Source of the DNA: an uncultured Prevotellaceae bacterium
Lineage (GTDB): Bacteria; Bacteroidota; Bacteroidia; Bacteroidales; Bacteroidaceae
Reading direction: 5' to 3'
Length of the DNA: 64,000 bases
Assembly: GCA_900313705.1 (NCBI GenBank)
Contig: OMSJ01000001.1
Span: 15,115-79,114 of the forward strand
The notes under the pieces were generated by a model. That model saw only the letters and a list, made by a program, of their open reading frames with translations. It ran no database searches and was not told where the DNA came from. A program made the translations under genes and the position numbers. Position 1 is the stretch's first letter, and each line of letters begins with the position of its first letter. Below are positions 4,483 through 50,810 of the stretch, piece after piece.

Positions 4483-5202
4483 ATGAAGATAGGCGACCAG
4501 GTGCGCTTCCTCTCCGAGGTGGGAGGAGGCAGAGTGAGTGGCTTCCAGGGGAAGAACATTGTCCTTGTCGAGGATGAGGACGGGTTTGAAATTCCGATGC
4601 TGGTGCAGGATGTCGTGGTTGTCGGCAACGAGGAATACGACAGCAGCAAGGTGAATACGATAGAGAGGGAAAAGCCTCTCTCCAAGACTCCCATCAAAGC
4701 GAGGGAACAAGAAGACCATGAAGAGAAGCCGATTACTTTCAAGCCAAAGCCTCTCGAAAGGCGTGAGGGGGAACGGCTCAACCTTTACCTGTCTTTCCTG
4801 CCAGACGACATCAAGGAAATCTCCAGCACGGGCTTCGAGTCGTACCTTGTGAACGACAGCAACTACTACATGCAGGTATCGTTGCTCAGCGCGGAAGGTG
4901 CGAGCTGGCATCTGCGCTTCTGCGGTGTCCTGGAGCCCAACAGCAAGCTCTTTGTAGAGGCTTTCGACCGCATGCAGGTCAACGACTTGGAACATCTATG
5001 CGTACAGGCCATCGCCTGGAAGCAGGACAAGCCGTTCCAACTGAAGCCTGCCATAACAACAGAACTTCGCCTCAACCTGACGAAGTTCTATAAACTGCAT
5101 GTCTTCCACCCAAATGAGTTCTTTGGTGAACCCAACTGGACGGAAGACATTATCCGTGACGACAAGCCTGTGCGCAGTGCCTGGTCGATACAGGAGTCTT
5201 AG
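4483..5202 (+). CDS. DUF2027-like conserved hypothetical protein
   Basis: 239 aa. The N-terminus MKIGDQVRFLSEVGGGRVSGFQGKNIVLVEDEDGFEIPML matches my recollection of Bacteroidales DUF2027 proteins. The TAG stop is the first unit of the GGTTAGA repeat array. Confidence 0.55.
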   Translation: MKIGDQVRFLSEVGGGRVSGFQGKNIVLVEDEDGFEIPMLVQDVVVVGNEEYDSSKVNTIEREKPLSKTPIKAREQEDHEEKPITFKPKPLERREGERLNLYLSFLPDDIKEISSTGFESYLVNDSNYYMQVSLLSAEGASWHLRFCGVLEPNSKLFVEAFDRMQVNDLEHLCVQAIAWKQDKPFQLKPAITTELRLNLTKFYKLHVFHPNEFFGEPNWTEDIIRDDKPVRSAWSIQES

Positions 5203-5346
5203 AGGTGGTTAGAGGTAAGAGGTTAGAGGTTAGGGGTTAGAGGTTAGAGGTTAGGGGTTAGAGGTTAGGGGTTAGAGGAATGTTTCGGGCTTTGATAACA
5301 GCCCCAAAGTATTCTCTAACCCCTAACCTCTTACCTCTTACCACTA
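5201..5346. repeat. Hairpin element with GGTTAGA/GGTTAGG heptamer-repeat arms, copy 1
   Basis: The left arm at 5201-5278 is about 11 tandem heptamers. The right arm at 5311-5346 is the complementary array. It starts on the TAG stop of the + gene and ends 4 nt from the stop of the - gene. Confidence 0.9.
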
Positions 5347-5349
5347 AAA

Positions 5350-7123: not shown

Positions 7124-7146
7124 GATGCTTTATTATTGAGGTCTTT

Positions 7147-7184
7147 GGTTATGACGTTATAACATTATTTCGTTATGACGACGG
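7147..7184. repeat. GTTATGAC-type octamer micro-array, copy 1
   Basis: GGTTATGACGTTATAACATTATTTCGTTATGACGACGG, in the spacer between two co-directional genes. Confidence 0.85.
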
Positions 7185-7193
7185 TTAGTTTCA

Positions 7194-10102: not shown

Positions 10103-10174
10103 AGTTTGATTGTTCATGTACTTGCAATTGCATGTTCATGTATATGCAATTGCAAGTACATGAACAATCAAACT
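10103..10174. repeat. 31-bp perfect inverted repeat with 10-nt loop
   Basis: AGTTTGATTGTTCATGTACTTGCAATTGCAT (10103-10133) pairs perfectly with ATGCAATTGCAAGTACATGAACAATCAAACT (10144-10174). No T-tract on either side. Confidence 0.9.
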
Positions 10175-11550: not shown

Positions 11551-13810
<2,260 letters not shown>

Positions 13811-14563
13811 ATGAAGACCCTCTCTAACTCTCCCTTAAAGGGAGAGGACTCTGGTTCGCAAGTCTCCCCTTTAAGGGGCAATTGCCCGTTAGAAGCGGAG
13901 CAATTGGGGAGCGTCAGCGACGGAGGCCCGAAGGGTTTAGAAGGGTCTTTGCCTTGCTGCTACCTCGCACCTGTCTCCCACTATAGCGCTTACTATCGTG
14001 CCGATGAGGTGCGCCTTGAGGTCTGCGACAACTTTACGAAGCAGACGCTTCGCAACCGCTGCTACATCGACAGCCCGAATGGAGCGCTTGCCCTCACCAT
14101 CCCTGTCGTCAAGACAGAAGGCAAGACGATGATGAAGGACATACGCATCAGCGACCACGGCAACTGGCGCCACCAGCATTGGGTGGCTCTCGAGAGCAGC
14201 TACAGGCAATCGCCTTTCTTCGAATACTATGCCGATGACTTCGCTCCTTTCTACGAGAAGAAGTGGGAGTTCCTTGCCGACTTCAACGAGGAGCTCATGA
14301 TGTTGGTTGCTTCGTTGCTCGATATTGAGAAGCCCATCAAAAGGACTCAAGCCTTCAGCCCCCTCCCCGCTCCCCCTTTGGGGGAGTGCCACAATCCCAC
14401 TGGACAAGGAAGTTTTGGCGGCAACGGAGCACTCCCCCAAAGGGGGAGCGGGGAGGGGGCTCCCTACTACCAAGTCTTCGCCTCGCGTCACGGCTTCCTG
14501 CCCGACCTCAGCATCGTCGATTTGCTCTTTAACCAAGGACCGGAGGGCGTGCTATGGCTGTAA
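13811..14563 (+). CDS. WbqC-family protein
   Basis: The core YLAPVSHYSAYYRADEVRLEVCDNFTKQTLRNRCYIDSPNGALALTIPV is typical of the WbqC family. The first 46 codons are repeat-element derived, so a TTG start at 13949 is an alternative. A 103-bp palindromic element is inserted in frame near the C-terminus. Confidence 0.75.
   Translation: MKTLSNSPLKGEDSGSQVSPLRGNCPLEAEQLGSVSDGGPKGLEGSLPCCYLAPVSHYSAYYRADEVRLEVCDNFTKQTLRNRCYIDSPNGALALTIPVVKTEGKTMMKDIRISDHGNWRHQHWVALESSYRQSPFFEYYADDFAPFYEKKWEFLADFNEELMMLVASLLDIEKPIKRTQAFSPLPAPPLGECHNPTGQGSFGGNGALPQRGSGEGAPYYQVFASRHGFLPDLSIVDLLFNQGPEGVLWL
13815..13948. repeat. AGACCC...GGGTCT palindromic MITE-like element, copy 1 (134 bp, two inner hairpins)
   Basis: Termini AGACCCTCTCTAAC / GTTTAGAAGGGTCT are inverted repeats. 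Inner hairpins are TCTCCCTTAAAGGGAGA and TCCCCTTTAAGGGG. It lies in the 5' part of the wbqC ORF. Confidence 0.85.
14358..14460. repeat. 103-bp GC-rich palindromic element, copy A
   Basis: Arms GCCCCCTCCCCGCTCCCCCTTTGGGGGAGTGC and its exact complement enclose a 39-nt loop. In frame inside wbqC. Confidence 0.9.
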
Positions 14564-16170
14564 CTGTTCATCCCCTCCCCGCCGATGTGCAAGGCGTATC
14601 TCCGCCTTGCCAGTTCACCTATCCTTTCTGCTACGAGCCACACCCTCTCTGCATCGCAGCAGCAGACGGGGTGCGCCGTTACCTCGACCAGCATCCCGAA
14701 TGGCACGACGAGCTCCAACGCGGCAAGATGTTCGGGGTGCTGATAGTGGAGGGGGCTTTCCTCGCTGCCTTCTCCGGCACACTCGATGGCAAGACGCAGC
14801 ATGAATACTTCGTGCCGCCAGTCTTCGACCTCATGGCGCCTGGCTGTCATTTCCAAGAGGAAGAGGCTGCCATTAGCATCATCAACCATAAGATAGCCTT
14901 TCTCGAAGCCTCGCTTAAGCCAAGCCCTTTGCGTCAGCAGATGCAGGAAGAGCTTGCCGCCTACAAGGTGTTCATGCAGCAAAGCAAGGCCAAGCGAGAT
15001 GCCCTGCGCCAAAGCTCCTCCCTAAAGGGGGAGGACGGAAGGGGGCTGTTCCTCATCAAGGAGAGCCAGCACCAGAAGGCAGAGTTCCGTCGGCTGAAGC
15101 AAGTTTGGGAACAACGCATATCGAAAGAGGAGGCACCACTTCGGGAACAAGAAGCACAGATAGCGCAACTGCAAGAGGAGCGGCAAGAGCGCAGCCAGGC
15201 CTTGCAGCAATGGCTCTTCCAGCAGTTCAGGTTCCTCAACGCCTTAGGCGAGACCCGTACCTTGCCTGAACTCTTCTCGCCTGCCGTGCCGCCATCCGGT
15301 GCTGGGGAATGCTGTGCGCCACGGCTTCTGCAAGCTGCCTATCGGGAAGGACTAAAGCCGCTCTGCATGGCTGAGTTCTGGGTGGGTGCTTCGCCTAAAG
15401 ACGAGTTGCGCATCGACGGACATTACTATCCTGCCTGCAACAGCAAGTGCCGTCCGATTCTCCGGCACATGCTGAAAGGTCTTGACGTCGAGCCTAACCC
15501 TTTGCTTGCGAATCAGGAGACGTTGCTCTCCCAACTACACATTATATATAATAATAAGGAGCTGGCCGTGGTGAGCAAGCCTGCCGGGATGCTCTCCGTG
15601 CCAGGCAAGGAGGAGCTGCCCAACGTGCAGGATGCCATGCGACAGATGTTCCCTTGGGCCACCGGACCGCTCATCGTCCATCGTCTCGATATGGACACCA
15701 GCGGCCTCATGCTCGTCGCTCTCACCGAAGAGAAGTACCATGAACTGCAGGACCTCTTCCTCCGCCGCCGCATCCATAAGGTCTATCATGCCCTGCTCGA
15801 GCGGGAGATGCCCGTCGGACAGGAAGGTGACATCTGTCTGCCCCTTCGTCCCGACATCGACGACCGCCCGAGGCAGATGGTTGACCCGAAGCACGGCAAG
15901 CCGGCACAGACGCATTATCGTGTGCTGGCAAACAAGGATGGACATGCCCTGCTCGAGCTCAGGCCGATAACAGGCCGCACACATCAGCTCCGCGTCCATT
16001 GTGCCCATCCCCTCGGCCTTGGCAACCCCATCGTAGGGGATAGGCTTTATGGCAAGCCTGCAGAAAGACTTATGCTCCATGCTTACAGCATAACCATAGA
16101 GACCCCAAACTCCCCTTTAGGGGGAGTAATGTTCAACGATCAATGTTCAATGTTCAATGATAAAGCTTGA
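14554..16170 (+). CDS. RluA-family pseudouridine synthase with long N-terminal extension
   Basis: 538 aa. Catalytic motif HRLDMDTSGLML plus TGRTHQLRVH. The last ~20 residues (NSPLGGVMFNDQCSMFNDKA) are encoded by a hairpin element plus a TGTTCAA array. Confidence 0.85.
   Translation: MAVTVHPLPADVQGVSPPCQFTYPFCYEPHPLCIAAADGVRRYLDQHPEWHDELQRGKMFGVLIVEGAFLAAFSGTLDGKTQHEYFVPPVFDLMAPGCHFQEEEAAISIINHKIAFLEASLKPSPLRQQMQEELAAYKVFMQQSKAKRDALRQSSSLKGEDGRGLFLIKESQHQKAEFRRLKQVWEQRISKEEAPLREQEAQIAQLQEERQERSQALQQWLFQQFRFLNALGETRTLPELFSPAVPPSGAGECCAPRLLQAAYREGLKPLCMAEFWVGASPKDELRIDGHYYPACNSKCRPILRHMLKGLDVEPNPLLANQETLLSQLHIIYNNKELAVVSKPAGMLSVPGKEELPNVQDAMRQMFPWATGPLIVHRLDMDTSGLMLVALTEEKYHELQDLFLRRRIHKVYHALLEREMPVGQEGDICLPLRPDIDDRPRQMVDPKHGKPAQTHYRVLANKDGHALLELRPITGRTHQLRVHCAHPLGLGNPIVGDRLYGKPAERLMLHAYSITIETPNSPLGGVMFNDQCSMFNDKA
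16108..16157 (+). repeat. Hairpin ACTCCCCTTTAGGGGGAGT followed by (TGTTCAA)x4 heptamer array
   Basis: Hairpin at 16108-16127. Array TGTTCAA CGATCAA TGTTCAA TGTTCAA at 16130-16157. Encodes the C-terminus of the RluA-like protein and contains the first base of the ATG of the next gene. Confidence 0.85.
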
Positions 16171-17760: not shown

Positions 17761-18750
17761 CTACGAACTAAGCCAGCGCTCAATGTTGCGCATCAAGCCG
17801 TCGTACTTGGCACGCTTGACGGCAGAACCCTTGAAAAGCATTCGGTACTGCTCCACCGTGAGCGTTTTCCAGCCGTCGGGCGTCATCTGCAGAAGCGCTT
17901 CGGAAGGTTGGAAGGCAGGCTCATCTGTGGGCTTGGCCTCGAGGAACTGCGGCGTGGCGCGCAGGCAGCGGTCGCATCCGTAGAAAGTAGGGCCGAGACG
18001 TAAATCCTCGGGAAGTGGACCGCGATGCTCGATGGTCTGATAGCTGATGCAGCGACGCGCATCGAGTCCTTCAGATGTGAGGGCAGGACAGATAGTCCCC
18101 CCAGAAGCCCCCTCCCCGCTCCCCCTTTGGGGGAGTGCCTCAATCTCGCTGGACAGGGAAGCTTTGGCGGCAATGGAGCACTCCCCCAAAGGGGGAGCGG
18201 GGAGGGGGCTTTGGAGGGGGCTTTGGAGAGGGCTGTCGTAGTGGTCGGCCTTGGCAGTCAGGAAAAGCTCTCCGAGGAAGACCGTCGGTCCGTAGCCGGG
18301 CACGCTGAGGAAGCCGCCTTTGGGGGTGATGATGCCGATGCCACTCCGCCATGCCCAGTAGCGCTCGAGGACAGGTGCTGTATCGACAAAGCAACGCCCT
18401 TCGAGGTGGAGCTCCTGCATGAGCTGGTTCATTCTCTGCCGCATGACGTCGTGATAGTCCAGCCCTTGTGCATAAAGGCTGATGGCTGGCTGTTGGTGCC
18501 GAGGCATGAAGTTCATGGCAAGGCTGACAATCGTCTGCACCCCCGGCACAAGGCGGTCGGGATGAAGGCGCATATCGACGTTGCGGCGCATGTAGTCCAT
18601 CCCTGCACAATAGTCGAGCTCAAGCCAATGGCGGAAACGGGCAGCATAGTCCTCTGCCACGGCTTCTGCCTTAGCAAGGCCACATGCAACAAAGCCCAAG
18701 CGCAAGGCCTGGGCTTTGATGTCGTTGCTATTCAATAATGCCGAACTCAT
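17761..18750 (-). CDS. queG: Epoxyqueuosine reductase QueG homologue, probably degenerate
   Basis: 329 aa. N-terminal and C-terminal QueG-like sequence (RRCISYQTIEHRG, GCDRC). A 103-bp palindromic element plus a 12-mer triplication occupies the place of the first CxxCxxCxxxCP motif, and the last Cys of the second motif reads Thr. Confidence 0.8.
   Translation of the reverse strand: MSSALLNSNDIKAQALRLGFVACGLAKAEAVAEDYAARFRHWLELDYCAGMDYMRRNVDMRLHPDRLVPGVQTIVSLAMNFMPRHQQPAISLYAQGLDYHDVMRQRMNQLMQELHLEGRCFVDTAPVLERYWAWRSGIGIITPKGGFLSVPGYGPTVFLGELFLTAKADHYDSPLQSPLQSPLPAPPLGECSIAAKASLSSEIEALPQRGSGEGASGGTICPALTSEGLDARRCISYQTIEHRGPLPEDLRLGPTFYGCDRCLRATPQFLEAKPTDEPAFQPSEALLQMTPDGWKTLTVEQYRMLFKGSAVKRAKYDGLMRNIERWLSS
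18107..18233. repeat. 103-bp GC-rich palindromic element, copy B, plus 12-mer x3 tandem
   Basis: 18107-18209 has the same arms and length as copy A, and the loop differs at a few positions. It is followed by GGAGGGGGCTTT-type 12-mers up to 18233. In frame inside queG on the opposite strand. Confidence 0.9.
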
Positions 18751-19377: not shown

Positions 19378-19410
19378 GCGTCATCACGTTATAACGTCAT
19401 AACGATATGG
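19378..19410. repeat. GTTATGAC-type octamer micro-array, copy 2
   Basis: GCGTCATCACGTTATAACGTCATAACGATATGG. Confidence 0.8.
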
Positions 19411-19454
19411 CGACACAACGTAACTCCGGCTTCTCGCCTTTACATCTCATCGGT

Positions 19455-23013: not shown

Positions 23014-23090
23014 GTACCTACTTCATCAATTAGGTGTACCTACTTCGTCAATTAGCTGTACCTACTTCGTCAATTAGCTGTACCTTCATT
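23014..23090. repeat. 22-bp tandem repeat x3.5 (GTACCTACTTCGTCAATTAGCT)
   Basis: Units at 23014, 23036 and 23058, with a partial unit at 23080. Sits between the DUF2723 promoter and the tRNA-Leu promoter. Confidence 0.9.
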
Positions 23091-23256: not shown

Positions 23257-23338
23257 GCGCTTGTGGTGGAATTGGTAGACACGCCAGACTTAGGATCTGG
23301 TGCCGAAAGGCGTGTAAGTTCGAGTCTTATCAGGCGTA
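23257..23338 (+). tRNA. tRNA-Leu (anticodon UAG), class II with long variable arm
   Basis: Cloverleaf read by eye. Acceptor GCGCTTG/CAGGCGT, anticodon stem CCAGA/TCTGG with loop CTTAGGA, variable arm TGCCGAAAGGCGT, T arm GTAAG-TTCGAGT-CTTAT. CCA is not encoded. Ends are accurate to about 2 nt. Confidence 0.9.
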
Positions 23339-26951: not shown

Positions 26952-27063
26952 CGGCACCATCATTCCCCCTATCAACTCTTTACATCTCCTTCATGCCCTC
27001 CAAACGGTCAGTTATAGAGGAGAAAGCACAGAGTATCGCAAAACGCAGTACCCCCATGGAAAG

Positions 27064-27146
27064 AAGTACGTGTACTTGTTGCCATAAGTACGTGTACTTA
27101 TCCGAATAACTACGTGTACTTATCCCCATAAGTACGTGTACTTATC
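27064..27146 (+). repeat. 22-bp tandem repeat x4 (GTACGTGTACTTATCCnnATAA), locus A
   Basis: Unit starts at 27066, 27088, 27110 and 27132, an exact 22-bp phase. Confidence 0.9.
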
Positions 27147-27199
27147 TGACCACTTCCCGAGAGGGGAGCAAGGAGGGGCTTTTGCAGAATATCAAAAGA

Positions 27200-28608: not shown

Positions 28609-28665
28609 TCCTCCCCCTTTGGGGGTCGGGAGGTACTTCCTCCCCCTAAAGGGGGCTGGGGGGTC
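28609..28665. repeat. Intergenic double-hairpin element (CCCCCTTTGGGGG / CCCCCTAAAGGGGG)
   Basis: CCTCCCCCTTTGGGGGTCGGGAGGTACTTCCTCCCCCTAAAGGGGGCTGGGGGGTC. It abuts the stop codon of the M24 peptidase gene. Confidence 0.8.
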
Positions 28666-30029
28666 TAGTATGGTATCCTGTCCTTGCCGAGGTATCGGCA
28701 ACCGTCTTTCGTGATGAGGATGTCGTCTTCGATGCGGATGCCGCCGAAGTCTTTGTATGTCTCCAACTTGTCGAAGTTGAGGAACTCCGCGCAATGTCCC
28801 GTCGAGCGCCACTCGTCGATGAGGGCAGGGATGAAGTAGATGCCCGGTTCGTCCGTCATAACAAAGCCTTCCTGCAAGCGGCGACCGCAGCGCAGGCAAT
28901 TGGTGCCGAACTGCTCGAGGTTGGGGCGCACCTCATCGTCGAAGCCGACATAGGTCTGCCCGAGGCCTTCCATGTCGTGAACGTCCATGCCCATCATGTG
29001 GCCGAGGCCGTGAGGCATGAACATGGCATGTGCTCCGGCACGGACGGCTTCCTCTGTGTCGCCCTTCATCAGACCAAGCTCCTTGAGGCGCTCCGTCATC
29101 AGTCGGCAAACGCCGAAGTGCACGTCCCACCACTTCACGCCAGGCGCGGCAAGCGTCAGAGCATAGTCATGGCAGTCCTTGACGATGTCGTAAATCTCCT
29201 TCTGACGTTGTGTAAAGGTGCCGCTTATGGGCGTCGTGCGGGTATTGTCGCTGCAATAGTTCTCGTTGGTCTCAGCTCCGGCATCGCAGAGAAGGAGTCG
29301 TCCTGCTTCAAGAGGGCGAGGGCTGGGATAGCCATGCATGATTTCGCCGTGCATCGTGACGATGCTGGGGAAGCTGACCATGCAGCCATGACTGCTGGCG
29401 ATACCGCTGATGCGACCCGCTATCTCCTGCTCCGTCACACCTTCACGGCACATTTGAATGGCCGTGGTGTGCATCTCGTAGCCAATGGCACAGGCACGCT
29501 CTATCTCGGCAATCTCGCCTGGACTCTTCACGGCACGCTGGTCGATGACGGCCTTGATGAGCTCCACGCTGGCTGCCACTCTTTGCTGAGAGGGATGAAT
29601 GCCCAGCATGTCCATGAGCTGGATCATGTGGTCGTGGCGATAAGGCGGCAGGAAATGGATGCGTTGACCGCTGGCTTTTGCCTTCTTTATGAAGTCCGAA
29701 AGACCTTTCATCGGCAAGGTCCTGGCCACGCCACACTCGGCAGCCATGTCCGCCACGCTGTTGACTGAGCCGAACCAGACGATGTCGTCGATGTCGATAT
29801 CATCGCCGACGAGGTATTCCTGATTGTTATCTACATCAATGATGCCGGCAAGCCCTTCGCGATGCTGTCCGTAGAAATAGAGGAACGAGCTGTCCTGACG
29901 GAAGCGATAGACGTTGCTCGGATAGTTGGCAGGCGAGTCGTTGTTGCCCATTAGCAAGATGATGCCTGAGCCGATGCGCTCTTTGAGCAGCCTGCGCCGC
30001 TCCATATAAGTCTGCTTATCAAATAACAC
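28665..30029 (-). CDS. Xaa-Pro aminopeptidase (M24B family)
   Basis: 454 aa. Metal-ligand motifs HGLGHMMGMDVHD, EPGIYF and IRIEDD. Creatinase/prolidase-type N-terminal domain. Confidence 0.88.
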   Translation of the reverse strand: MLFDKQTYMERRRLLKERIGSGIILLMGNNDSPANYPSNVYRFRQDSSFLYFYGQHREGLAGIIDVDNNQEYLVGDDIDIDDIVWFGSVNSVADMAAECGVARTLPMKGLSDFIKKAKASGQRIHFLPPYRHDHMIQLMDMLGIHPSQQRVAASVELIKAVIDQRAVKSPGEIAEIERACAIGYEMHTTAIQMCREGVTEQEIAGRISGIASSHGCMVSFPSIVTMHGEIMHGYPSPRPLEAGRLLLCDAGAETNENYCSDNTRTTPISGTFTQRQKEIYDIVKDCHDYALTLAAPGVKWWDVHFGVCRLMTERLKELGLMKGDTEEAVRAGAHAMFMPHGLGHMMGMDVHDMEGLGQTYVGFDDEVRPNLEQFGTNCLRCGRRLQEGFVMTDEPGIYFIPALIDEWRSTGHCAEFLNFDKLETYKDFGGIRIEDDILITKDGCRYLGKDRIPY

Positions 30030-32539: not shown

Positions 32540-33778
32540 TCAGAAGAGCTTCATTACGCCGCTTGCTGGTCTGCCGGCAAGCAGTTCCTGTCGCATGTAG
32601 TCCATATAGGGTGCGACATGGTGGAAGAATATCTGATAACCTGCGCAAAGATAGTTAAGCCCTGGTTCGCCATCGGCTGTCCTGAGGAAGCGCAGACGGG
32701 GACATTCTCCGTGACAGGCCTTGAGCCAAGGACATTCGCGGCACTGACGAGGGAGAGCCTCCTTCTTCAGTCGGCTGAAGCGGTTCTGCTTGGTGCCATA
32801 GAGCATCTGCGGCAGGCCATTCGTGCGTATGTTACCTAATTTATATTGTGGGAAGACGAAGTGGTCGCAGGAATAGACATCGCCGTTGTGCTCCATGACT
32901 GCGGCATGTCCACACTCTTCGGCATAGACGCAGACGCCGGGCTCTGCGCCCATCCAGCCTGCGAGGGTGGCATCAAAGAGCTGCACAAAGACTTCGCCTA
33001 CATCATGGCGCACCCATTCGTCGAAGATGGCACACATAAAATGTCCCCATTCTTCGGGTCGGATACTGAAGGGGGCTATGGGACAATCTTCATCGAAAAG
33101 CTGTGCCAAGTGTCGGCCATCGCTATGCTGCTTGATGCGTTCTACGACGGGACTTATCTGGAGGAACTTACATTGCAGTTCATCGCGAAAGAAGTGGTAA
33201 AAGGCAAGGGGGTCTTGTGCATTATGATGATTGGCTGTCGCCATTGCGTTCCACTCCACGCCATAGTCGTTCAAGAGCTTGATGCCGTCCATCACCTTCT
33301 GCCATGTTCCCCGACCCTGAACATCGAGTCGGTAGGCATCGTGCTGCTCCTGGGTGCCGTCGATGCTGATGCCCACGAGCCATCCTTCGTCGTGGAGGAA
33401 CTGGCACCACTCTGGGGTGAGCAAGGTGCCGTTTGTCTGTATGCTGTTGCTGATGCGCTTGCCTCGTCCATAATAGCGTTGCAGCCGGACTGCCTGTTTG
33501 TAGAAGCTGAGGGGCCTGAGCATGGGCTCGCCTCCGTGCCAGGTGAAGAGTACATCGGGCATCTGCTGCACCTGGATATAGTCGCGGATGTATTGCTCCC
33601 AGACCCTCTCTAACTCCCCCTTAAATGGGGAGGACTCTCTTCCTTTAAGGGAGGGTTGGGGAGGGTCTAAATGCTGCTTCTCCAAATAGTAGCAATACTC
33701 GCATCGCAGATTACACGTTGGTCCTGCAGGCTTGGCCATAACATAAAGCGGGCGGGCGAAAGGATAGGCAGTTTGCAT
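32540..33778 (-). CDS. Anaerobic sulfatase-maturating enzyme (radical SAM, SPASM domain)
   Basis: 412 aa. Radical-SAM motif CNLRCEYCYY and Cys-rich SPASM C-terminus. Carries an in-frame 68-bp palindromic element (PSLKGRESSPFKGELERV). Confidence 0.85.
   Translation of the reverse strand: MQTAYPFARPLYVMAKPAGPTCNLRCEYCYYLEKQHLDPPQPSLKGRESSPFKGELERVWEQYIRDYIQVQQMPDVLFTWHGGEPMLRPLSFYKQAVRLQRYYGRGKRISNSIQTNGTLLTPEWCQFLHDEGWLVGISIDGTQEQHDAYRLDVQGRGTWQKVMDGIKLLNDYGVEWNAMATANHHNAQDPLAFYHFFRDELQCKFLQISPVVERIKQHSDGRHLAQLFDEDCPIAPFSIRPEEWGHFMCAIFDEWVRHDVGEVFVQLFDATLAGWMGAEPGVCVYAEECGHAAVMEHNGDVYSCDHFVFPQYKLGNIRTNGLPQMLYGTKQNRFSRLKKEALPRQCRECPWLKACHGECPRLRFLRTADGEPGLNYLCAGYQIFFHHVAPYMDYMRQELLAGRPASGVMKLF
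33601..33668. repeat. AGACCC...GGGTCT element, copy 2 (68 bp)
   Basis: AGACCCTCTCTAACTCCCCCTTAAATGGGGAGGACT...CCTTTAAGGGAGGGTTGGGGAGGGTCT, inside the sulfatase-maturase ORF. Confidence 0.85.
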
Positions 33779-33790
33779 GTTATTAATGTA

Positions 33791-33950
33791 TTAAGGATTA
33801 AGGATTAAAGATTAAGGATTAAGGTTTTGTTGATTTGGGAAGTAGGACAGCATTGCATCGGGCTTATTTCTTAATATATTACTTGGTATTTAGGAACCAA
33901 AGCAAACAGCTTTAATCATTAATCTTTAATCCTTAATCCTTAATCTCTAA
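33791..33950. repeat. Hairpin element with TTAAGGA heptamer arms
   Basis: Left arm 33791-33824 (TTAAGGATTAAGGATTAAAGATTAAGGATTAAGG). The complementary right arm at 33910-33950 overlaps the lolE-like stop codon. Confidence 0.85.
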
Positions 33951-35176
33951 TTCAATATCTTGCCTGCAAGATACTTCACCGGATACCATATTGCGAGCCA
34001 GCCGACGGCGAGGACGGTGACGAGGACAAGGAGGATGTCGGTGAGATAGACGCTGACGGGATAGGTCTCGATGATGAAGCTGCCTTCGCTGTCGCCCATC
34101 GTTACGATGCCATACTCTTGCTGAATCCAGCAGAGGACAGTGCCGAGCACCAGTCCGAGCAAGGCTCCGGCAAGGCTGATGATGTGGCCTTCCAAACGGA
34201 AGATGGTACAGATCTGCGAGTCGTTGGCACCAAGGCTGCGGAGTGTCTGGATGTCCTGTCGCTTGTCTATCATCAGCATCGAGAGGGAGCCGATGATGTT
34301 GAAGCAGGCAACGAGCAGGATGAAGGAGAGGAAGAAGTAGGAGATGAGCTTCTCGATGCGCATCACGCGGAAGACATCGTTCTGCTGTTCATAGCGATCC
34401 TCCACCTTGAAGCGCTCGCCGAGCTGTGCCTTTAGCTGTGCCTTCACCTTGTCTGCCTTGAGGCCGTCCTTGAGCTTCAGCTCGACGGACGACACTCTGC
34501 CCTGTCGGTCGAAGAGGCGCTGGGCAAAGCCGAGACTGGTGAGGATGTAGTTGGCATCGTACTTGGCCTGTCTGACCATGAAGACGACGCCCGGGCTTTG
34601 CAGCTCGTCGTGATTGAAGGAGGACAGTGGATTGCCGATGTTGACGCGCTCACCTGGCTTGGGAGCATAGATCTGTAGAGGGTCTTCGAAAAAGGCAGAG
34701 AGGCCCAGTTGCTGAGCCAGTTGTATGCCGAGGACGCCGTACTCCAGGATGTCGGCATGTAGGCAGAAGGAGCCGTCGCCATAGAGGATTTCCTCGATGC
34801 GTGTCTGTTTCGTGAAGTTGTCGGCAACGCCTTTGATGGTCACGACCTGCTGCCGTCCGTTCTGCACCACGAGTGCCTGTCCTTCGAGGACTGGCGTATA
34901 GACTTCCACGGCATCGCTCTTCTTGAGCTCCAGCAGGGCGGCGTCCTTGATGCTGACGGTCTGCCCGTCTGCCGGTGTGACGCGCAGTTCGGCATCGAAT
35001 GCCGTGAAGAGGTCGGCCACGAGGTCCTGGAAGCCGTTGAAGACGCTCAGCGTGACCACCATTGCCATCGTTGCCACAGCCACTCCGAGCACAGAGATGC
35101 CGCTGATGATGTTGATGGCATGGTGGCTCTTCTTGGCGAAGAGGTAGCGGCGAGCTATGAACAATTCATAATTCAT
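33947..35176 (-). CDS. FtsX/LolE-like ABC transporter permease
   Basis: 409 aa. N-terminus MNYELFIARRYLFAKK...INIISGISVLGVAV and a C-terminal FtsX 3-TM block. Confidence 0.85.
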   Translation of the reverse strand: MNYELFIARRYLFAKKSHHAINIISGISVLGVAVATMAMVVTLSVFNGFQDLVADLFTAFDAELRVTPADGQTVSIKDAALLELKKSDAVEVYTPVLEGQALVVQNGRQQVVTIKGVADNFTKQTRIEEILYGDGSFCLHADILEYGVLGIQLAQQLGLSAFFEDPLQIYAPKPGERVNIGNPLSSFNHDELQSPGVVFMVRQAKYDANYILTSLGFAQRLFDRQGRVSSVELKLKDGLKADKVKAQLKAQLGERFKVEDRYEQQNDVFRVMRIEKLISYFFLSFILLVACFNIIGSLSMLMIDKRQDIQTLRSLGANDSQICTIFRLEGHIISLAGALLGLVLGTVLCWIQQEYGIVTMGDSEGSFIIETYPVSVYLTDILLVLVTVLAVGWLAIWYPVKYLAGKILN

Positions 35177-35625: not shown

Positions 35626-35760
35626 AAGAAGATAAATGGAGATAGAAGAAGATAGAAGACGTTAGTTTTTGCAGCCGATAAAGGTATCGTCCTCTATCTT
35701 CGCCGCTGGAAGCGGCATATCTTCCTCTAACTTCCTCTATCTACTTCATCTTTAATCTTC
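35626..35760. repeat. Imperfect hairpin with GATAGAAGAA-type arms
   Basis: AAGAAGATAGAAGAAGATAAATGGAGATAGAAGAAGATAGAAG on the left, CTTCCTCTAACTTCCTCTATCTACTTCATC on the right, with an inner GCCGCT-GGA-AGCGGC hairpin. Confidence 0.75.
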
Positions 35761-37188
35761 CTCGCTGAACATCGGATCCCACGCTGGCAGGCGGATGGGC
35801 TTCTGCTTGAGCAGGTCGAGGACAGAGGCGGGACAGTACCTGCGGTTGGCGACGATGCGGAACATGTACTCGCGGAACCATTCGTCGGTCATGATGATGT
35901 AGCCGTTTGCGCCGCTGGCCGAGCCCCAACTGTTCTCCACCTTCCACTTCGTTGGCTTGCCCTCGCCGTCGAGGTCCACGGCCATGAGGGTCATGGCGTG
36001 CGTGCTGCCGCTGTCGAAGGTCTGGATGCGCTGTTTCTTGTTCATGCCGAAGGTGGTGCCCAGCAGACTGTCGTAGTCGAAGTTCTTGAGGTCGGCGATG
36101 CCCGTGTTGCGGTCGAGGCACTTGCCCACGTCGCAACTGAAGTATATCTGGCTACTGTCCTTGAGCGAAGCGATGGCGATGCTCTCCAGCTCCTCGATGG
36201 GCAGGTTGACGTAGAGCCAGTTGTGCCCGTCATAGACGTGGCGGTCGTAGTCTATCTCATAGACCTTGCCAAAGGGTCGGCTGGGGTCGTTCATCAGCAT
36301 GACGTAGTCCTTGTTGAGGTCCTCGCCCTCGCTGATGCAATAGGTCTTGAAGAAATCGAGGGGAGAAAAGACCCTCTCTAACTCCCCCTTAAAGGGGGAG
36401 GACTGGGGTAGGTCTTTCCAAGTGAATGTTTTTGGCGGTACGCCATAGGCCATGACGAGCATCTTATAGACGGTCTGGAGCTGCTCCACCTTCAGGGCTT
36501 CGAGCTGCTTCTCGCTCATGCCTGCCTCGCTCTTCTCGCGGAGGGTGATGCCGAACTCGCGGAGCTTGCGTTTCAGGTGACCGCAGAACTCGCTGGTACT
36601 GTTGCTGACGTAGGTCTCGGGCATGATGTCGGCAGGCACGACGCCGTATTTCGTGGCGAGGTCGGCCACGCCTGTGTAGGTGCCGCCGTCGGAGAGTGGG
36701 TGCTGGAAGAGCCAGCGCACCATCTCGCTGTCGATGGCTTCCTTGCGGGTGTCGATGATGCCTTGCAGGAAGAGGTTGCTCTTCTCCAGTTGGTCGTAGA
36801 AGAAGAGGTAGCCCTGGCTGAGCACGAAGTTCTTTGTGCCGAGCTTCTTCATGGCGCGTCCTCTCAGGATATTCAGCCCTGTGAAGAGCCAGCACCGCCC
36901 GCTACTCTTCTGGTCAGTGATTCCAGTATTCTTCACCTCGATGCTGAAGTCCAGATTCTTCGCTCCGGCGTTCTCCTGATTGATGGCCATCTTCTGCAGG
37001 CCGACATTGCTGATGGCGTTGCGGAGGGCCTTCTCGGCGGGTGTAGCGGTGTAGCTGCCTTCGAGCTTCTTCAGCACATCGGGCGTGATGTTCGTCTGGG
37101 CGCAGGCAGTAGAAAGTTGGACATCGAACATTGAACATTGAACTCCTGCTACAGCAAGGAGCAGGGCGCATAGAGTCGTTCTTTTCAT
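35752..37188 (-). CDS. pepC: Aminopeptidase C (bleomycin-hydrolase type C1B peptidase)
   Basis: 478 aa. Catalytic Cys motif QKSSGRCWLFTGLN and C-terminal ENSWG. Carries an in-frame palindromic element (SSPFKGELERV) and a TGTTCAA array in the signal-peptide region. Confidence 0.9.
   Translation of the reverse strand: MKRTTLCALLLAVAGVQCSMFDVQLSTACAQTNITPDVLKKLEGSYTATPAEKALRNAISNVGLQKMAINQENAGAKNLDFSIEVKNTGITDQKSSGRCWLFTGLNILRGRAMKKLGTKNFVLSQGYLFFYDQLEKSNLFLQGIIDTRKEAIDSEMVRWLFQHPLSDGGTYTGVADLATKYGVVPADIMPETYVSNSTSEFCGHLKRKLREFGITLREKSEAGMSEKQLEALKVEQLQTVYKMLVMAYGVPPKTFTWKDLPQSSPFKGELERVFSPLDFFKTYCISEGEDLNKDYVMLMNDPSRPFGKVYEIDYDRHVYDGHNWLYVNLPIEELESIAIASLKDSSQIYFSCDVGKCLDRNTGIADLKNFDYDSLLGTTFGMNKKQRIQTFDSGSTHAMTLMAVDLDGEGKPTKWKVENSWGSASGANGYIIMTDEWFREYMFRIVANRRYCPASVLDLLKQKPIRLPAWDPMFSEED
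36369..36415. repeat. AGACCC...GGTCT element, copy 3 (about 47 bp, single hairpin)
   Basis: AGACCCTCTCTAACTCCCCCTTAAAGGGGGAGGACTGGGGTAGGTCT, inside pepC. The first 36 nt are nearly identical to copy 2. Confidence 0.85.
37124..37144 (-). repeat. (TGTTCAA)x3 heptamer array in pepC signal-peptide region
   Basis: The minus strand reads GTTCAATGTTCAATGTTCGA, encoding QCSMFDV. Confidence 0.8.
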
Positions 37189-37309: not shown

Positions 37310-37881
37310 CCCAAGGGTTTGTTTATCTCTAAGGAGTTGAGGAGTTATAGGAGATTTTCCCTGAGGCGCTGACGCAGTCCTCCTTTGACTCCTTGACTCC
37401 TTAGAATTATTATTGCCTAAGGAGTGAAGGAGGAAGGGAGTACCACAGCGTCTCATGGTACTGCCTTCCAGGCAGCAGGGAGAAAGTTACACGCTGACTC
37501 CGAGGGCTTCGCCCCCGGTTACTAAAAGTAAAGCCCTACAGGCTTTTTTGCCCATCATGGCATTTCCAAGCCCCAAGCAATCTCATCTTGCTCTAAATGC
37601 TGATATTATCGAGGGTGCAGACTATGATGAAAACTTTTAGCGGACAGCAATAAAACTATTTCTCCTTTGACTCCTTGACTCCTTAGAATTGATTATTGCC
37701 TAAGGAGTGAAGGAGGAAGGGAGTTGTTTCGCCAGCGAAACGTTTTCTCCTTTGACTCCTTCGCCAATGGGGTGTTTCTCTCTAAGGAGTTGAGGAGTTA
37801 TAGGAGATTTTCCCTAAAGCGCTGACGCAGTCCTCCTTTGACTCCTTGACTCCTTAGAATTGATTATTGCCCAAGGAGTGA
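37310..37881. repeat. Nest of AAGGAGT/GACTCCT octamer-arm hairpin modules (A-B-C modules)
   Basis: A1 37329-37353, B1 37378-37404, C1 37417-37440; B2 37661-37686, C2 37700-37723; A3 37782-37806, B3 37831-37857, C3 partial 37870-37881. A and C are both complementary to B. Confidence 0.8.
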
Positions 37882-37885
37882 AAAA

Positions 37886-37968
37886 AAGTACGTGTACTTG
37901 TCGCCATAAGTACGTGTACTTATCCGACTAACTACGTGTACTTATTGCCATAAGTACGCGTACTTATC
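37886..37968 (+). repeat. 22-bp tandem repeat x4, locus B (about 90 percent identical to locus A by eye)
   Basis: Unit starts at 37888, 37910, 37932 and 37954. Same orientation and register as locus A. Confidence 0.9.
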
Positions 37969-37980
37969 ACATATAATAAT

Positions 37981-38015
37981 AGAGGGTATGTCCGTTCATG
38001 TTGGACATACCCTCT
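37981..38015 (-). terminator. Hairpin after the 58-aa ORF (13-bp perfect stem)
   Basis: AGAGGGTATGTCC / GGACATACCCTCT with a 9-nt loop. An A/T-rich tail (ATTATTATAT) follows on the minus strand. Confidence 0.55.
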
Positions 38016-43310: not shown

Positions 43311-45041
43311 ATGAGAAAAAGCAACTACGACAAGCAACCCAGCACCCACATCGACGGCAAGGCTGTCATTGGCTGGGACAATATCGTTCAGACACTCAGC
43401 AAAGCTTGGGCTGACGAGCCCGTCTGGGCCATCGACCTCTATCCGGGCACCTACGAGGAGGACTTCATCAACGCCTTTGCCAAGACCGGCCGAAAGATTA
43501 TCAATACCCGCGACCTCATGCGGCCTGAAGAGGAAATCCGACAACTGACGGAACGCTTTATGACCGATGACGTGCTCTTCGGATACATGTCGAACATTCG
43601 CTTACACGAATATTTCGACAATTCAAAATTAATAAATTCAAAATTCAAAATTGAAGAGCCCATTGCCATCATTGGCACAGGCGCAGCCTTCGTCGCCGAG
43701 AAATGGTCAATGGTCAATGGTCAATGGTCAATAGTTTACGCCGACATGGCCCGCTGGGAGATTCAGCAACGCTTCCGCCGACACGAAGTGAAGGCGCTCG
43801 GCATCGACAACCACGAGGACAGTCCCTCGGTGCAATATAAAAGAGGTTACTTCAACGACTGGAACATCATCGACCGCTACAAGGACGAGCTGATGCAGAG
43901 CGGACGCATCGAGTTCTGGATTGACTCGAACCGTCGCGACGAGCCGAAGATGATTACCGACGCGCAGATGCGGCAAGGACTGGAGCGCACGGCTCACAAA
44001 CCTTTCCGCGTCGTTCCCTTCTTCGACCCGGCTCCTTGGGGAGGCCAGTGGATGAAGGAAGTCTGCGACCTGCCTCGCGAGGAGGTGAACTACGGCTGGT
44101 GCTTCGACTGCGTGCCCGAGGAGAACAGCCTCTATCTGGAGGCCGACGGCATGCTCTTCGAACTGCCTTCGCAGGACGTCGTGCTGGCTCACACTCGCGA
44201 GCTGCTCGGACAGCAGGTGTGGCATCGCTTCGGCAAGAGTTTCCCCATCCGCTTCGACTTCCTCGACACCATGCAGGGCGGCAACCTCAGCCTGCAGGTG
44301 CATCCCACCAACGAGTTCGCACAGAAGGAGTTCGGTCTGCCCTACACGCAGGACGAGAGCTACTATCTGCTTGATGCTGGCGAGGATGCGGTGGTCTATC
44401 TCGGCCTGAAAGAAGGCATCGACAAGGTGCAGATGATAGAGGACCTGCGGGCTGCCCAGCGGGGCGAGATTCTGTTCGACGCCGAGAAGTACGTCAACAA
44501 ATTGCCTGCCAAGAAGCACGACCACTACCTCATCCCCGCCGGCACCATCCATTGCTCCGGCCACGACAGCATGGTGCTCGAGATAAGCTCTACGCCCAGC
44601 ATCTTCACCTTCAAGCTATGGGACTGGGCACGCCTCGGACTGGACGGCAAGCCAAGGCCCATCAACGTGGAGCGCGGCAAGTTCGTCATCCAATGGGAGC
44701 GCACCACATCCTTCGTCAAGTCGCAAATAGCCAACCACTTCGAGGTATTGAGCGAGGAAGAAGGCATCAAGGAAGAGCGGACCGGACTGCATCCCAACGA
44801 GTTCATCGAGACGCGGAGGCACACCTTCACTCGTCCCGTAGAGCACGACACGCGTGGCGGCGTCAACGTCCTCAACCTCGTTGATGGCGAAGCAGCACTC
44901 ATCGAGAGTCCCGAAGGCAAGTTCGAGCCCTTTGAGGTGCACTATGCCGAGACCTTCATCATCCCCGCTTGCGTAGGGCGCTACACCATCAAGCCCCTCG
45001 ACAAGGAGTGCATGACAATCAAGGCATACGTGAGAGCCTGA
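43311..45041 (+). CDS. Class I mannose-6-phosphate isomerase-like protein (long form)
   Basis: 576 aa. Cupin/PMI signature LSLQVHPTNEFAQKEFGLPYTQDESYY. Contains an in-frame (TGGTCAA)x4 array (WSMVNGQWS). Confidence 0.7.
   Translation: MRKSNYDKQPSTHIDGKAVIGWDNIVQTLSKAWADEPVWAIDLYPGTYEEDFINAFAKTGRKIINTRDLMRPEEEIRQLTERFMTDDVLFGYMSNIRLHEYFDNSKLINSKFKIEEPIAIIGTGAAFVAEKWSMVNGQWSIVYADMARWEIQQRFRRHEVKALGIDNHEDSPSVQYKRGYFNDWNIIDRYKDELMQSGRIEFWIDSNRRDEPKMITDAQMRQGLERTAHKPFRVVPFFDPAPWGGQWMKEVCDLPREEVNYGWCFDCVPEENSLYLEADGMLFELPSQDVVLAHTRELLGQQVWHRFGKSFPIRFDFLDTMQGGNLSLQVHPTNEFAQKEFGLPYTQDESYYLLDAGEDAVVYLGLKEGIDKVQMIEDLRAAQRGEILFDAEKYVNKLPAKKHDHYLIPAGTIHCSGHDSMVLEISSTPSIFTFKLWDWARLGLDGKPRPINVERGKFVIQWERTTSFVKSQIANHFEVLSEEEGIKEERTGLHPNEFIETRRHTFTRPVEHDTRGGVNVLNLVDGEAALIESPEGKFEPFEVHYAETFIIPACVGRYTIKPLDKECMTIKAYVRA
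43704..43731 (+). repeat. (TGGTCAA)x4 heptamer array inside the isomerase ORF
   Basis: Four perfect units encoding WSMVNGQWS. Confidence 0.95.
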
Positions 45042-45054
45042 GCCCCCTGCGAAC

Positions 45055-45097
45055 TGTCGTCATAACGAAATAACGATAAAACGTCATAACGAAAAAC
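45055..45097. repeat. GTTATGAC-type octamer micro-array, copy 3 (inverted)
   Basis: TGTCGTCATAACGAAATAACGATAAAACGTCATAACGAAAAAC. Confidence 0.85.
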
Positions 45098-46312: not shown

Positions 46313-47491
46313 ATGAATAAGAAGTTAATCCCCGTCATGCTATGCTTCTTCGCCATGGGCTTCGTCGATATGGTAGGCATAGCAAGCAACTATGTAAAAG
46401 AGGACTTGAACCTCACCGACTCGATGGCCAACACGCTGCCATCGCTTGTGTTCCTCTGGTTCCTCATCTTCAGCATTCCCACGAGTCTGCTGATGAACAA
46501 GATAGGCCGCAAGAATACCGTCCTGCTGAGCCTTGTTATGACCCTTGTGGCAATGGCGATTCCGGTATTCACCCTCGATTTCACCATGCTGCTGCTCTCC
46601 TTCTCCCTTTTGGGAATAGGCAACGCCATCCTTCAGACCTCGCTCAACCCGTTGGTTGATAGCGTGATGAAAGGCGGAGCATCAGCCAGCACCCTGACCT
46701 TTGGGCAGTTCATCAAGAGCATCGCCTCGTTCCTGGCTCCCATCATTGCCTCTTGGGGAGCTACGACGAATGCTTTCGGCTTGGGTTGGCAGGCACTCTA
46801 TCCTATATATTTATGTGTAGGAGTTGTGGCAACGCTGCTGCTCTTCGGAACGAAGATAACAGACCCCTCTAAATCTCCCCTTAAAGGGGAGACTTCCTGC
46901 GCAGGCTCCTCCCCTTTAAGGGGAGGTTGGGTAGGGTCTTTTGCCTTGCTGGGCAATCCCTTCATCCTGCTTTGCTTCCTCGCCATCATCTGCCATGTAG
47001 GCATTGATGTCGGCACCAGCATCACAGCCCCGAAGATCCTGATGGAGCGCACCGGCATGAGCCTCAACGATGCCGCCTTCGTCTGCACCATCTACTTTGT
47101 GGCCAAGGCTGCAGGCAGCTTCAGCGGTAGCTTCATCATGGGTTTCCTCAAGGACTGGACCTTCCTACTCCTGAGTGTCCTGTTGATGGTGGCAGCCGCC
47201 TTCGGCCTCATCTACGGAGAGAGCACCGCCGTCATCTATGCCAGCGTTGCCTTGATGGGCTTCGGCAATGGCAATCCCTTCAGCATCATCTTTGCCCGTG
47301 CCATGCAAGCCGTACCGGAGAAGAAGAACGAAGTCAGCGGCCTGCTCATCATGGGCATCTTCGGCGGCACCATCTTCCCGCTTCTGATGGGCTTTGCCAG
47401 CGATGCGATGGGACAGGTGGGTGCCGTCCTCGTCATGAGTGTCGGCATTCTCTACCTGCTTGGCTTCTGGCTACAAGGCAGGAAAGCATAG
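46313..47491 (+). CDS. MFS sugar transporter (glucose/galactose or fucose permease-like)
   Basis: 392 aa and about 12 TM helices. The central loop carries an in-frame 79-bp palindromic element (DPSKSPLKGETSCAGSSPLRGGWVGS). Confidence 0.85.
   Translation: MNKKLIPVMLCFFAMGFVDMVGIASNYVKEDLNLTDSMANTLPSLVFLWFLIFSIPTSLLMNKIGRKNTVLLSLVMTLVAMAIPVFTLDFTMLLLSFSLLGIGNAILQTSLNPLVDSVMKGGASASTLTFGQFIKSIASFLAPIIASWGATTNAFGLGWQALYPIYLCVGVVATLLLFGTKITDPSKSPLKGETSCAGSSPLRGGWVGSFALLGNPFILLCFLAIICHVGIDVGTSITAPKILMERTGMSLNDAAFVCTIYFVAKAAGSFSGSFIMGFLKDWTFLLLSVLLMVAAAFGLIYGESTAVIYASVALMGFGNGNPFSIIFARAMQAVPEKKNEVSGLLIMGIFGGTIFPLLMGFASDAMGQVGAVLVMSVGILYLLGFWLQGRKA
46861..46939. repeat. AGACCC...GGGTCT element, copy 4 (79 bp)
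   Basis: AGACCCCTCTAAATCTCCCCTTAAAGGGGAGACT...CTCCTCCCCTTTAAGGGGAGGTTGGGTAGGGTCT, inside the MFS ORF. Confidence 0.85.
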
Positions 47492-48173: not shown

Positions 48174-48297
48174 AATTAAGAATTAAGAGATAGGAATTAA
48201 GAATTTGCTATTGTTCAAAGATCTTTAATCTTTAATCCTTAATCTTTAATCCTTAATCTTTAATCCTTAATCTTTAATCTTTAATCTTTATTCCCTC
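48174..48297. repeat. AATTAAG / TAATCTT-TAATCCT heptamer arrays
   Basis: 48221-48297 is about 11 tandem heptamers of the same family as 33910-33950. A short AATTAAG array lies at 48174-48205. Confidence 0.85.
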
Positions 48298-48771
48298 TTT
48301 TATCTTCGTCCTGGCCCTGTGGAGATAGACCTTGACTTGTGTCTCGCTGATGTCGAGGGTCTGTGCTATCTCCTGATAGGTCTTGCCTTCGATGTCGCGC
48401 AGCAGCATGATGGTGCGTTGCAGTTCCGGCAAGCTATCCATGAGGCGGCGCACGAGAGAGAGTTGTTCGCGGGCTTCCATCGAAGACTGCACGTTGGGCA
48501 TTGCGGAATGCACATCGTCAACCTCGTCGAGGGACTTGGTGTTGCGGCCCGCCCGTTTCAGCACATCGAGCGCTCTGTTCCTGCAAATGGCGATTGCGAA
48601 GGCTTCGAGGCTGTTTATCTGCTCCCACTGGCTGCGCTGCTCCCACACTTTCAGGAGTGTGTCCTGCACCACATCTTCGGCCTCTGCCCTGTTCATCGTG
48701 ATGCGCAGAGCAAGGCGGAAGAGCCTGTCGCTCAGCGGCAAAACGGTGGTTCGGAAGCTGATGTTTTCCAT
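48274..48771 (-). CDS. ECF-subfamily RNA polymerase sigma-70 factor
   Basis: Region 2 (AEDVVQDTLLKVW) and region 4 (TYQEIAQTLDISETQVKVYLHRAR). Start set to MENISF (48771). The last 7 codons and the stop lie in the TAATCTT heptamer array. Confidence 0.9.
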   Translation of the reverse strand: MENISFRTTVLPLSDRLFRLALRITMNRAEAEDVVQDTLLKVWEQRSQWEQINSLEAFAIAICRNRALDVLKRAGRNTKSLDEVDDVHSAMPNVQSSMEAREQLSLVRRLMDSLPELQRTIMLLRDIEGKTYQEIAQTLDISETQVKVYLHRARTKIKEGIKIKD

Positions 48772-50802: not shown

Positions 50803-50810
50803 GTAAATTA

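Follow-up and report, generated by a model that had tools for sequence, protein, structure and literature searches.

A dispersed in-frame hairpin repeat of rumen and gut Prevotellaceae and its association with a DUF559 nuclease gene

Introduction

How does one and the same long palindrome come to lie, in frame, inside two different genes that are read from opposite strands? The question is raised by a 64,000-nucleotide stretch (hereafter, the window) of contig OMSJ01000001.1 (positions 15,115 to 79,114 of the forward strand; assembly GCA_900313705.1) from an uncultured Prevotellaceae bacterium, where one copy of the palindrome is carried by a WbqC-family gene on the + strand and a second by a QueG-like gene on the - strand. 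An original prediction, made from the letters of the window, had described the palindrome as a repeated insertion module that can be translated in both directions. The explanation that we favor, with a probability of about 0.6, is that the element is one copy of a dispersed in-frame hairpin repeat found in Prevotellaceae of the rumen and gut, served by a DUF559 nuclease in a manner similar to REPINs and their REP-associated tyrosine transposases (RAYTs), and tolerated within genes in a manner similar to Rickettsia palindromic elements (RPEs).

Results

Structure of the two copies

The 32-nt arm GCCCCCTCCCCGCTCCCCCTTTGGGGGAGTGC occurs at exactly four sites in the window, 14358-14389 and 18107-18138 on the + strand and 14429-14460 and 18178-18209 on the - strand, compared to zero matches expected from 100 shuffles, confirming a repeated palindrome with shared arms. 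As one more base at either end of the unit (A…T) also pairs perfectly, what had been described as a 103-bp unit with 32-nt arms is indeed a palindrome, of 105 bp with 33-nt arms (Table 1). The two copies are 94% identical overall. Their 39-nt loops are closely similar, as had been predicted, matching at 33/39 positions, and have the same orientation on the + strand. Predicted RNA folds of the elements are near-perfect hairpins of -88 to -99 kcal/mol (z ~ -9), in agreement with the long stem that had been anticipated. The further remark, made by eye on the frames then checked, that the unit is free of stop codons holds for the arms and for copy A, which is open in 6/6 frames, and fails for copy B, which is open in 5/6 owing to a single TGA in one - strand frame. 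A promoter/terminator scan gave no signal at the elements. In the Rfam search, only a tRNA elsewhere in the window reached the gathering score; a known RNA family was rejected, as the elements match only generic eukaryotic microRNA hairpin models, far under the Rfam threshold.

The proposed hosts, wbqC on the + strand and queG on the - strand, were correct as to strands and as to WbqC. The second host is more properly a QueG-like DUF1730 protein; it scores 179 bits against TIGR00276, under the cutoff of 200, and does not have the canonical Fe-S cysteines. Both hosts share the predicted arm peptides SPLPAPPLGEC and ALPQRGSGEGA. The loop peptides differ (HNPTGQGSFGGNG in WbqC, SIAAKASLSSEIE in the QueG-like protein) because the loops are read in opposite directions. 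In each protein the insert falls in a linker that is hypervariable. The motifs on either side of it are ADHYD and CPALT for the QueG-like protein and KRT.AF and YYQVF for WbqC, and the Pfam WbqC match is divided at residue 182, exactly where the insert begins. The ratio dN/dS is 0.14 for the QueG-like gene (compared with orthologue L041, which also carries the element; dS ~0.85) and 0.06-0.07 for the WbqC gene (compared with orthologues also carrying the element; dS ~0.85), and both host genes are thus under purifying selection.

Several observations concern the QueG-like host itself. The segment that aligns to residues 204-229 of Bacillus subtilis QueG (5d08) consists, in this protein, of the variable linker and the element, and a second motif reads GCDRCLRATP as against GCDTCQTVCP in the B. 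subtilis protein; both the variable linker and the GCDRCLRATP motif are common to all 23 aligned relatives. An AlphaFold2 model of the protein, with a predicted local distance difference test score (pLDDT) of 49, was too poor for placing the insert. A protein search with the insert peptide was uninformative (2 matches among 1.8e9 representatives), and a word-index search gave no candidate.

Size of the repeat family and its location in coding DNA

The exact 23-nt core of the arm was searched against metagenome-derived genomes, and all family counts that follow are lower bounds. It is present in at least 32 species-level metagenome-assembled genomes (MAGs), which together contribute at least 119 loci, with at least 18-20 arm loci in single MAGs; the matches listed are all from rumen or gut Prevotellaceae/Bacteroidales MAGs. 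A blastn-short search of these loci recovered at least 240 arms, including at least 75 convergent pairs, whose loops measure 16-99 nt with modes at 28 and 39 nt, and, beside the pairs, at least 84 single arms, some of which are partnered with arms of other variants. The arms are conserved (127/221 perfect, 40 with one mismatch) and the loops are variable. No arm frame contains a stop codon in any of the six readings, and a mini-palindrome (7 bp/3 nt) is present within each arm.

Clustering by flanks reduced these loci to at least 109 unique sites, for which gene calls are open reading frame (ORF) proxies, Pfam-checked on a sample. Far from being a private pair, the window copies thus belong to a family with at least 109 distinct sites, and the view of the element as an insertion module translatable both ways is borne out by arms open in six frames, by this number of sites in at least 32 genomes and by orthologues that keep the frame in either orientation. 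Eighty of the 109 unique sites (~73%) lie within ORFs of 100 aa or more. In a count of copies instead of sites, the same holds for 57/72 pairs and 62/80 single arms. As random positions fall within such ORFs in 81% of cases, the element is not visibly depleted from coding DNA. Strong Pfam domains were found in 9/10 randomly sampled host ORFs, with the element within or between domains: RmlD (twice), a sigma-70/OMP fusion, APH/NTP-transferase, an ABC ATPase, NanM-SSF, PmbA/TldD, an FAD oxidoreductase and ThiF. Although the arms are open in all frames, the unique sites show a strong reading-frame bias, 41:7:14 for SPLPAPPLGEC and 48:10:14 for ALPQRGSGEGA. The mean number of open frames is 3.48 for loops, 3.17 for shuffled loops and 2.55 for random genomic 105-mers, lending weak support to selection for all-frame stop-freeness in the loops.

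Other ways of placing an insert within a gene were considered and rejected. An intein or intron does not fit an insert of 35 aa without intein motifs, and translational bypass would not require copies to keep the frame and to contain no stops in the frame used, as the in-gene copies overwhelmingly do. Searches of plasmid, phage and IMG/VR sequences found no copy of the element, and one distant DUF559 relative only, leaving a phage or plasmid vehicle unsupported.

Variation among orthologues

The two host sites vary among relatives. Some relatives do not have the long element (for example P0005, at 95% identity, and P0165), and others carry, at the same site, shorter variants or wholly different arm families. 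In P0002, P0009, P0010 and P0014 (QueG-like) and in P0133 (WbqC) the loop is in the opposite orientation and still in frame. In orthologue L128, the copy B loop is found as its exact reverse complement, with the arms and the adjoining 12-nt tandem duplication unchanged. The original prediction had reasoned that two copies alone in the genome, present also in the orthologues of all related species, would point to an ancient fixed sequence; instead, presence, loop, orientation and element family all vary.

Because inverted repeats produce ambiguous de Bruijn paths at small k, palindromes, and loop inversions especially, could be suspected to be products of metagenome assemblers. We give this suspicion almost no credence, as the final k of the MEGAHIT contigs in question, 141, is longer than the whole 105-bp element, 7 contigs from independent samples carry the same protein, and either orientation turns up repeatedly, with its frame kept, among many independent orthologues of two genes.

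Short tracts of high identity, or of mosaic sequence, lie around the element. The window and L041, which is from a different species, are 80.3% identical outside the element, whereas the element with ~20-nt flanks is identical at 147/149 positions (P = 5e-12). In the WbqC orthologue comparison the element is identical at 98/103 positions compared to 82% upstream, and over orthologous sites the arms are 97% identical compared to 80% for the flanks. Loops at further orthologous sites show either ~100% identity or no relation in sequence and length. L125 is 98-99% identical to the window elsewhere and differs in a mosaic tract of ~240 nt that has no element. Such conversion-like tracts are seen around the short element and not around the DUF559 gene described below.

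Arms, and often loops, that are far more conserved than the flanking coding DNA, together with the strong reading-frame bias, could also be read as an old motif selected by the host, such as a protein-binding site, a recombination signal or an mRNA-stability hairpin, that is presently immobile. We consider this highly improbable, since close relatives differ at a single site in occupancy, loop sequence, orientation and even element family, since host genes and positions are mutually unrelated, and since the elements have neither a match at Rfam gathering score nor a promoter or terminator signal.

Two further features of these alleles were observed. In the 'short' alleles of both hosts (L125 6540-6600; L211 1905-1945), similar arm-like remnants of ~33 nt, GCTCCTCTTTTGGAGGGGGCAGGGGAGAGGCT and GCTCCCCCTTTAACGGAGGGCAGGAGAGAGTCT, are present. 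They could be elements that have collapsed or decayed, or a sequence preferred as a target. In addition, the outer end of the arm is partially duplicated in tandem at two places: beside copy B at 18211-18234, where L041 has one 12-nt copy fewer than the window, and in the WbqC gene of L212 (about 1915-1935), where the duplication is of 21 nt. These duplications suggest slippage at the base of the hairpin.

A DUF559 nuclease gene between the arms

In the loci selected for their arms, some convergent arms are 430-500 bp apart and enclose a gene for a 129-aa DUF559 protein (PF04480, E = 6e-32). This arm-DUF559-arm unit was found in two unrelated contexts, Na-symporter/epimerase and RluB/AsnS, and the same loci contain DUF559 genes that are more distant, flanked by different arms of the same architecture. 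In the profile search the protein matched 3hrl, a DUF559 structure (E = 9e-23), and, weakly, 3r3p, the homing endonuclease I-Bth0305I (E = 1.6e-3).

For an assessment free of ascertainment by arms, 80 DUF559 loci were fetched from metagenomes by protein homology only, and the 220-nt flanks on the two sides of the gene were searched for the best inverted repeat that they form with each other, which was compared with 325 shifted-position controls. The flanking inverted repeat exceeded the 95th percentile of controls in 74/78 loci and the control maximum in 52/78. The arms follow a common plan, AGCC(C/T)n…, then a short spacer and a perfect pyrimidine/purine palindrome of 7-11 bp with a 2-5-nt loop. 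They fall into 13 families separated by compensated C:G to T:A changes that keep the mini-palindrome perfect. Arm identity rises with DUF559 identity (Mantel rho 0.45; reached by 0/999 permutations), and the DUF559 clade at least 64% identical to the query is the carrier of exactly the arms of the WbqC and QueG-like elements. With dN/dS ~0.10 at dS 0.4-1.8, the DUF559 gene is under purifying selection. It occupies ~13 conserved syntenic contexts among the 78 loci, is nearly always co-directional with and adjoining the next gene, and in 48/52 units its right arm lies in an open frame that runs into that downstream gene.

A conventional MITE (a miniature transposable element with inverted repeats), with the arms as terminal inverted repeats for a transposase encoded elsewhere and DUF559 as a passenger or neighbor, would account for perfect 33-bp terminal inverted repeats, a size of 93-140 bp, high copy number and a variable interior. 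It is nevertheless an unlikely reading: no target-site duplication was seen, and in ~900 kb of arm-containing loci the sole longer unit bounded by arms carries DUF559 and no transposase. The association of gene and arms in 74/78 loci, over ~13 arm families, is hard to square with a passenger, and MITEs are normally intergenic (PMC10969869).

Alternatively, the hairpin could be the target of a free-standing DUF559 homing-endonuclease gene that inserts into the loop, the short elements being spread by other, unseen machinery. The homing endonuclease I-Bth0305I is a member of the Vsr/EDxHD clade, as is DUF559 (PMC3424549), and the DUF559 gene is placed between two arms exactly at the loop position. 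The arm variants are clade-specific, as target specificity predicts, and conversion-like tracts surround the short elements. We doubt this account, as the gene is in just ~13 syntenic contexts over the 78 loci despite hundreds of available hairpins, long-term purifying selection (dN/dS ~0.10, dS up to 1.8) is unlike the decay cycle of a typical homing gene, and this DUF559 clade is essentially absent from viral contigs.

Other states of the gene were also observed. Decayed DUF559 with an in-frame stop lies between intact arms in L048 (2383-2769) and L137 (2501-2887), and an internally deleted remnant lies between perfect 36-nt arms in L005 (3602-3796). In several clades the DUF559 frame stays open up to the right arm and on into the downstream gene, so that DUF559, arm and host appear as fusion ORFs of 290-850 codons (L174, L175, L178 and L181, which are human-gut contigs; L167/L168, L187 and L189). 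PADLOC returned weak nuclease-domain matches only, and no defense-system assignment.

Features and other repeats in the window

Table 1. Coordinates of the two palindromic elements, their parts and their host reading frames in the window (peptides are conceptual translations).
Feature	Position	Strand	Remarks
Element copy A, 105 bp (two 33-nt arms around a 39-nt loop)	14357..14461	.	Codons 183-217 of the WbqC ORF, in frame
Copy A left arm, AGCCCCCTCCCCGCTCCCCCTTTGGGGGAGTGC	14357..14389	+	Translates as SPLPAPPLGEC
Copy A loop, 39 nt	14390..14428	+	Subterminal motif C.CA.T.CC.C at either end, inverted
Copy A right arm	14429..14461	+	Exact reverse complement of left arm; translates as ALPQRGSGEGA
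Element copy B, 105 bp	18106..18210	.	In frame within the - strand QueG-like ORF
Copy B left arm	18106..18138	+	
Copy B loop	18139..18177	+	Exact reverse complement present in orthologue L128
Copy B right arm	18178..18210	+	
Mini-palindrome CTCCCCC-TTT-GGGGGAG in copy A left arm	14370..14386	.	Candidate recognition site or hairpin
Mini-palindrome equivalents in the other three arms	14432-14448, 18119-18135, 18181-18197		
Two 12-nt tandem partial copies of arm end, TTGGAGGGGGCT and TTGGAGAGGGCT	18211..18234	+	Encode SPLQSPLQ in the QueG-like protein
WbqC-family ORF, 250 aa	13811..14563	+	Host of copy A; PF08889 match
QueG-like DUF1730 ORF, 329 aa	17761..18750	-	Host of copy B; QueG_DUF1730 (PF08331) match

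The window contains other repeats. A second family of hairpin arms, AGACCC(T/C)CTCTAACTCCCCCTTAAAGGGGGAGGAC, is built in the same way and is found at 13814-13855, 15015-15036, 16085-16129, 28637-28681, 33600-33641, 36368-36409 and 46859-46926, including copies within the ORFs 14554-16170, 35752-37188 and 46313-47491. It is from the copy at 13814 that the WbqC ORF takes its first ~46 codons; the orthologues of this ORF begin M(V/I/L)LPCCYLAP. No DUF559 partner for the AGACCC arms was found among the 80 DUF559 loci.

Tandem arrays of heptamers (TTAGAGG, TAAGGAT, TGGTCAA) are located at 5188-5347, 50795-50918, 33784-33975, 48202-48309, 43690-43746, 50568-50602 and 53191-53233, often as inverted pairs that could form long hairpins, and related TGGTCAA arrays are present in the orthologous loci L078 and L084. 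Octamer arrays of the GTTATRAC type occur in both orientations in four places (7141-7186, 19380-19420, 45052-45097 and 56847-56895), and a 9-nt array (TGAGYCCCA, ~13 units; 12247-12363) adjoins the start codon of a signal peptidase I ORF (12362-13810). Two 22-nt tandem arrays with a palindromic GTACGTGTAC core, at 27013-27168 and 37857-37990, are ~10.8 kb apart and 92% identical over 90-nt reference copies; a separate 3 x 22-nt array (23014-23085) lies upstream of a tRNA at 23257-23338. Finally, a spacerless 36+36-nt inverted repeat, 94% complementary, is found at 10103-10174.

Discussion

The favored reading, a dispersed hairpin repeat served by a DUF559 nuclease, can be put as a sequence of proposed steps. 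DUF559 would recognize the palindrome of the arms and make nicks or breaks there; other copies would then be the templates for repair, the identical arms providing the homology. Repair guided in this way could copy, homogenize, swap and flip the elements; a loop might be inverted because the arms are each other's reverse complements, which would allow the template to pair either way. Such repair would explain the homogeneity of the arms, loop swaps, loop inversions, short conversion tracts and the partial tandem duplications of arm ends. Copies that preserve the frame would survive in genes because the arms are stop-free in every frame, and would persist at permissive linkers, where they would be translated from either strand into peptides rich in Pro, Gly and Ser.

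Several points weigh against this reading. The role of DUF559 as a trans-acting enzyme that recognizes the arm palindrome is deduced from association, and the co-variation of gene and arms is partly expected because the two are linked. Only the left subterminal motif clearly ties the short elements to the full-length DUF559 units. There is no DUF559 gene within the window, and among the matches listed, the MAGs richest in arms (RGIG6885, CAMVDV and RGIG6784) show no family-1 DUF559, MAGs in general being incomplete. The arm-DUF559-arm unit is not a clean insertion, since its right arm is in frame within the downstream gene. The comparison with orthologues that had been proposed did reveal presence and absence of the element, but not a pristine empty site: none was found among the short alleles of both hosts, and no direct repeat flanks the elements. 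As the short alleles carry an arm-like remnant, neither an empty site nor, hence, a target-site duplication can be defined. Finally, translation of the inserts is predicted from the continuity of the ORFs and the purifying selection on their hosts.

More tentatively, and at somewhat less than even odds, DUF559 and its cognate arms may constitute an undescribed class of repeat and nuclease, with at least 13 arm families in Bacteroidales, a PD-(D/E)XK parallel of REPIN/RAYT, hairpins adapted to coding DNA and loop flips and swaps guided by the arms. In the literature searched, DUF559 is not connected with repeats or mobility, and no in-frame palindromic elements are described for Bacteroidota.

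If the favored reading is true, a testable role would be at hand for DUF559, a widespread nuclease domain of unknown function with a large orphan family, and REPIN-like replicators would not be bound to HUH transposases. It would also provide a second, independent and much larger case of in-frame selfish DNA in housekeeping genes, after the RPEs of Rickettsia. The carriers are abundant, partly culturable rumen and gut bacteria, in which proteomics, Ribo-seq and genetics are feasible. The predicted inserts amount to 30-45 extra residues in many Prevotellaceae proteins, with divided domain matches and N- or C-terminal extensions, and affect how rumen MAGs are annotated, how orthology is called and how structures are predicted.

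Comparison with known systems

The paradigm for the architecture is that of REPINs and RAYTs (PMC3116915, PMC5581495). As in that system, two short palindrome-bearing repeats are inverted around a spacer to give a long hairpin, and single arms exist as well; as with RAYTs, the DUF559 gene is flanked by inverted cognate repeats, occupies conserved sites, is under purifying selection and co-varies with its repeat family. The flanked gene differs in kind, encoding a DUF559 PD-(D/E)XK nuclease (PF04480) instead of an IS200-like HUH Y1 transposase. The elements themselves, unlike the extragenic REPINs, are mostly intragenic and in frame; they do not have the GTAG head, and their host phylum is Bacteroidota.

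With regard to location, the closest likeness is to the RPEs, reportedly described by Ogata et al. in 2000. The RPEs are in-frame palindromic elements of Rickettsia genes (PMC10969869). Both are palindromic repeats of ~100-150 bp, in frame in many unrelated housekeeping genes, that add peptide segments at tolerated positions (here, predicted segments in hypervariable linkers), and in both several families coexist. Compared by description, the elements studied here differ from RPEs in phylum, probably in sequence, in arms that are perfect and nearly invariant, and in loops that are flipped and swapped. They also differ in having a candidate cognate enzyme, DUF559; we know of no enzyme for RPEs.

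Long transcript hairpins, such as those of Correia/NEMIS-type units and those predicted for the elements here, would be substrates for RNase III. Such MITEs of Neisseria resemble the elements in being short non-coding units with terminal inverted repeats and many copies (PMC10969869). Unlike them, the elements showed no TA or other target-site duplication, are mainly located in coding rather than intergenic DNA, and have no parental insertion sequence or transposase that could be found in the arm-containing loci. Likeness to I-Bth0305I (3r3p) and to 3hrl lies in the nuclease fold of the flanked gene, weakly so for 3r3p, and, for the elements, in the short conversion-like tracts around them; unlike I-Bth0305I, the DUF559 gene lies outside any intron or intein, is chromosomal, remains syntenic over long divergence and is tied to dispersed repeats.

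Finally, small hairpin-flanked loops in chloroplast DNA invert recurrently and homoplasiously among relatives. The inversions described here are likewise exact, recurrent and homoplasious, affecting the sequence between short perfect inverted repeats. What sets them apart from the chloroplast case is that the inverted segment lies within an ORF whose frame stays open both ways, with translation predicted in either orientation.

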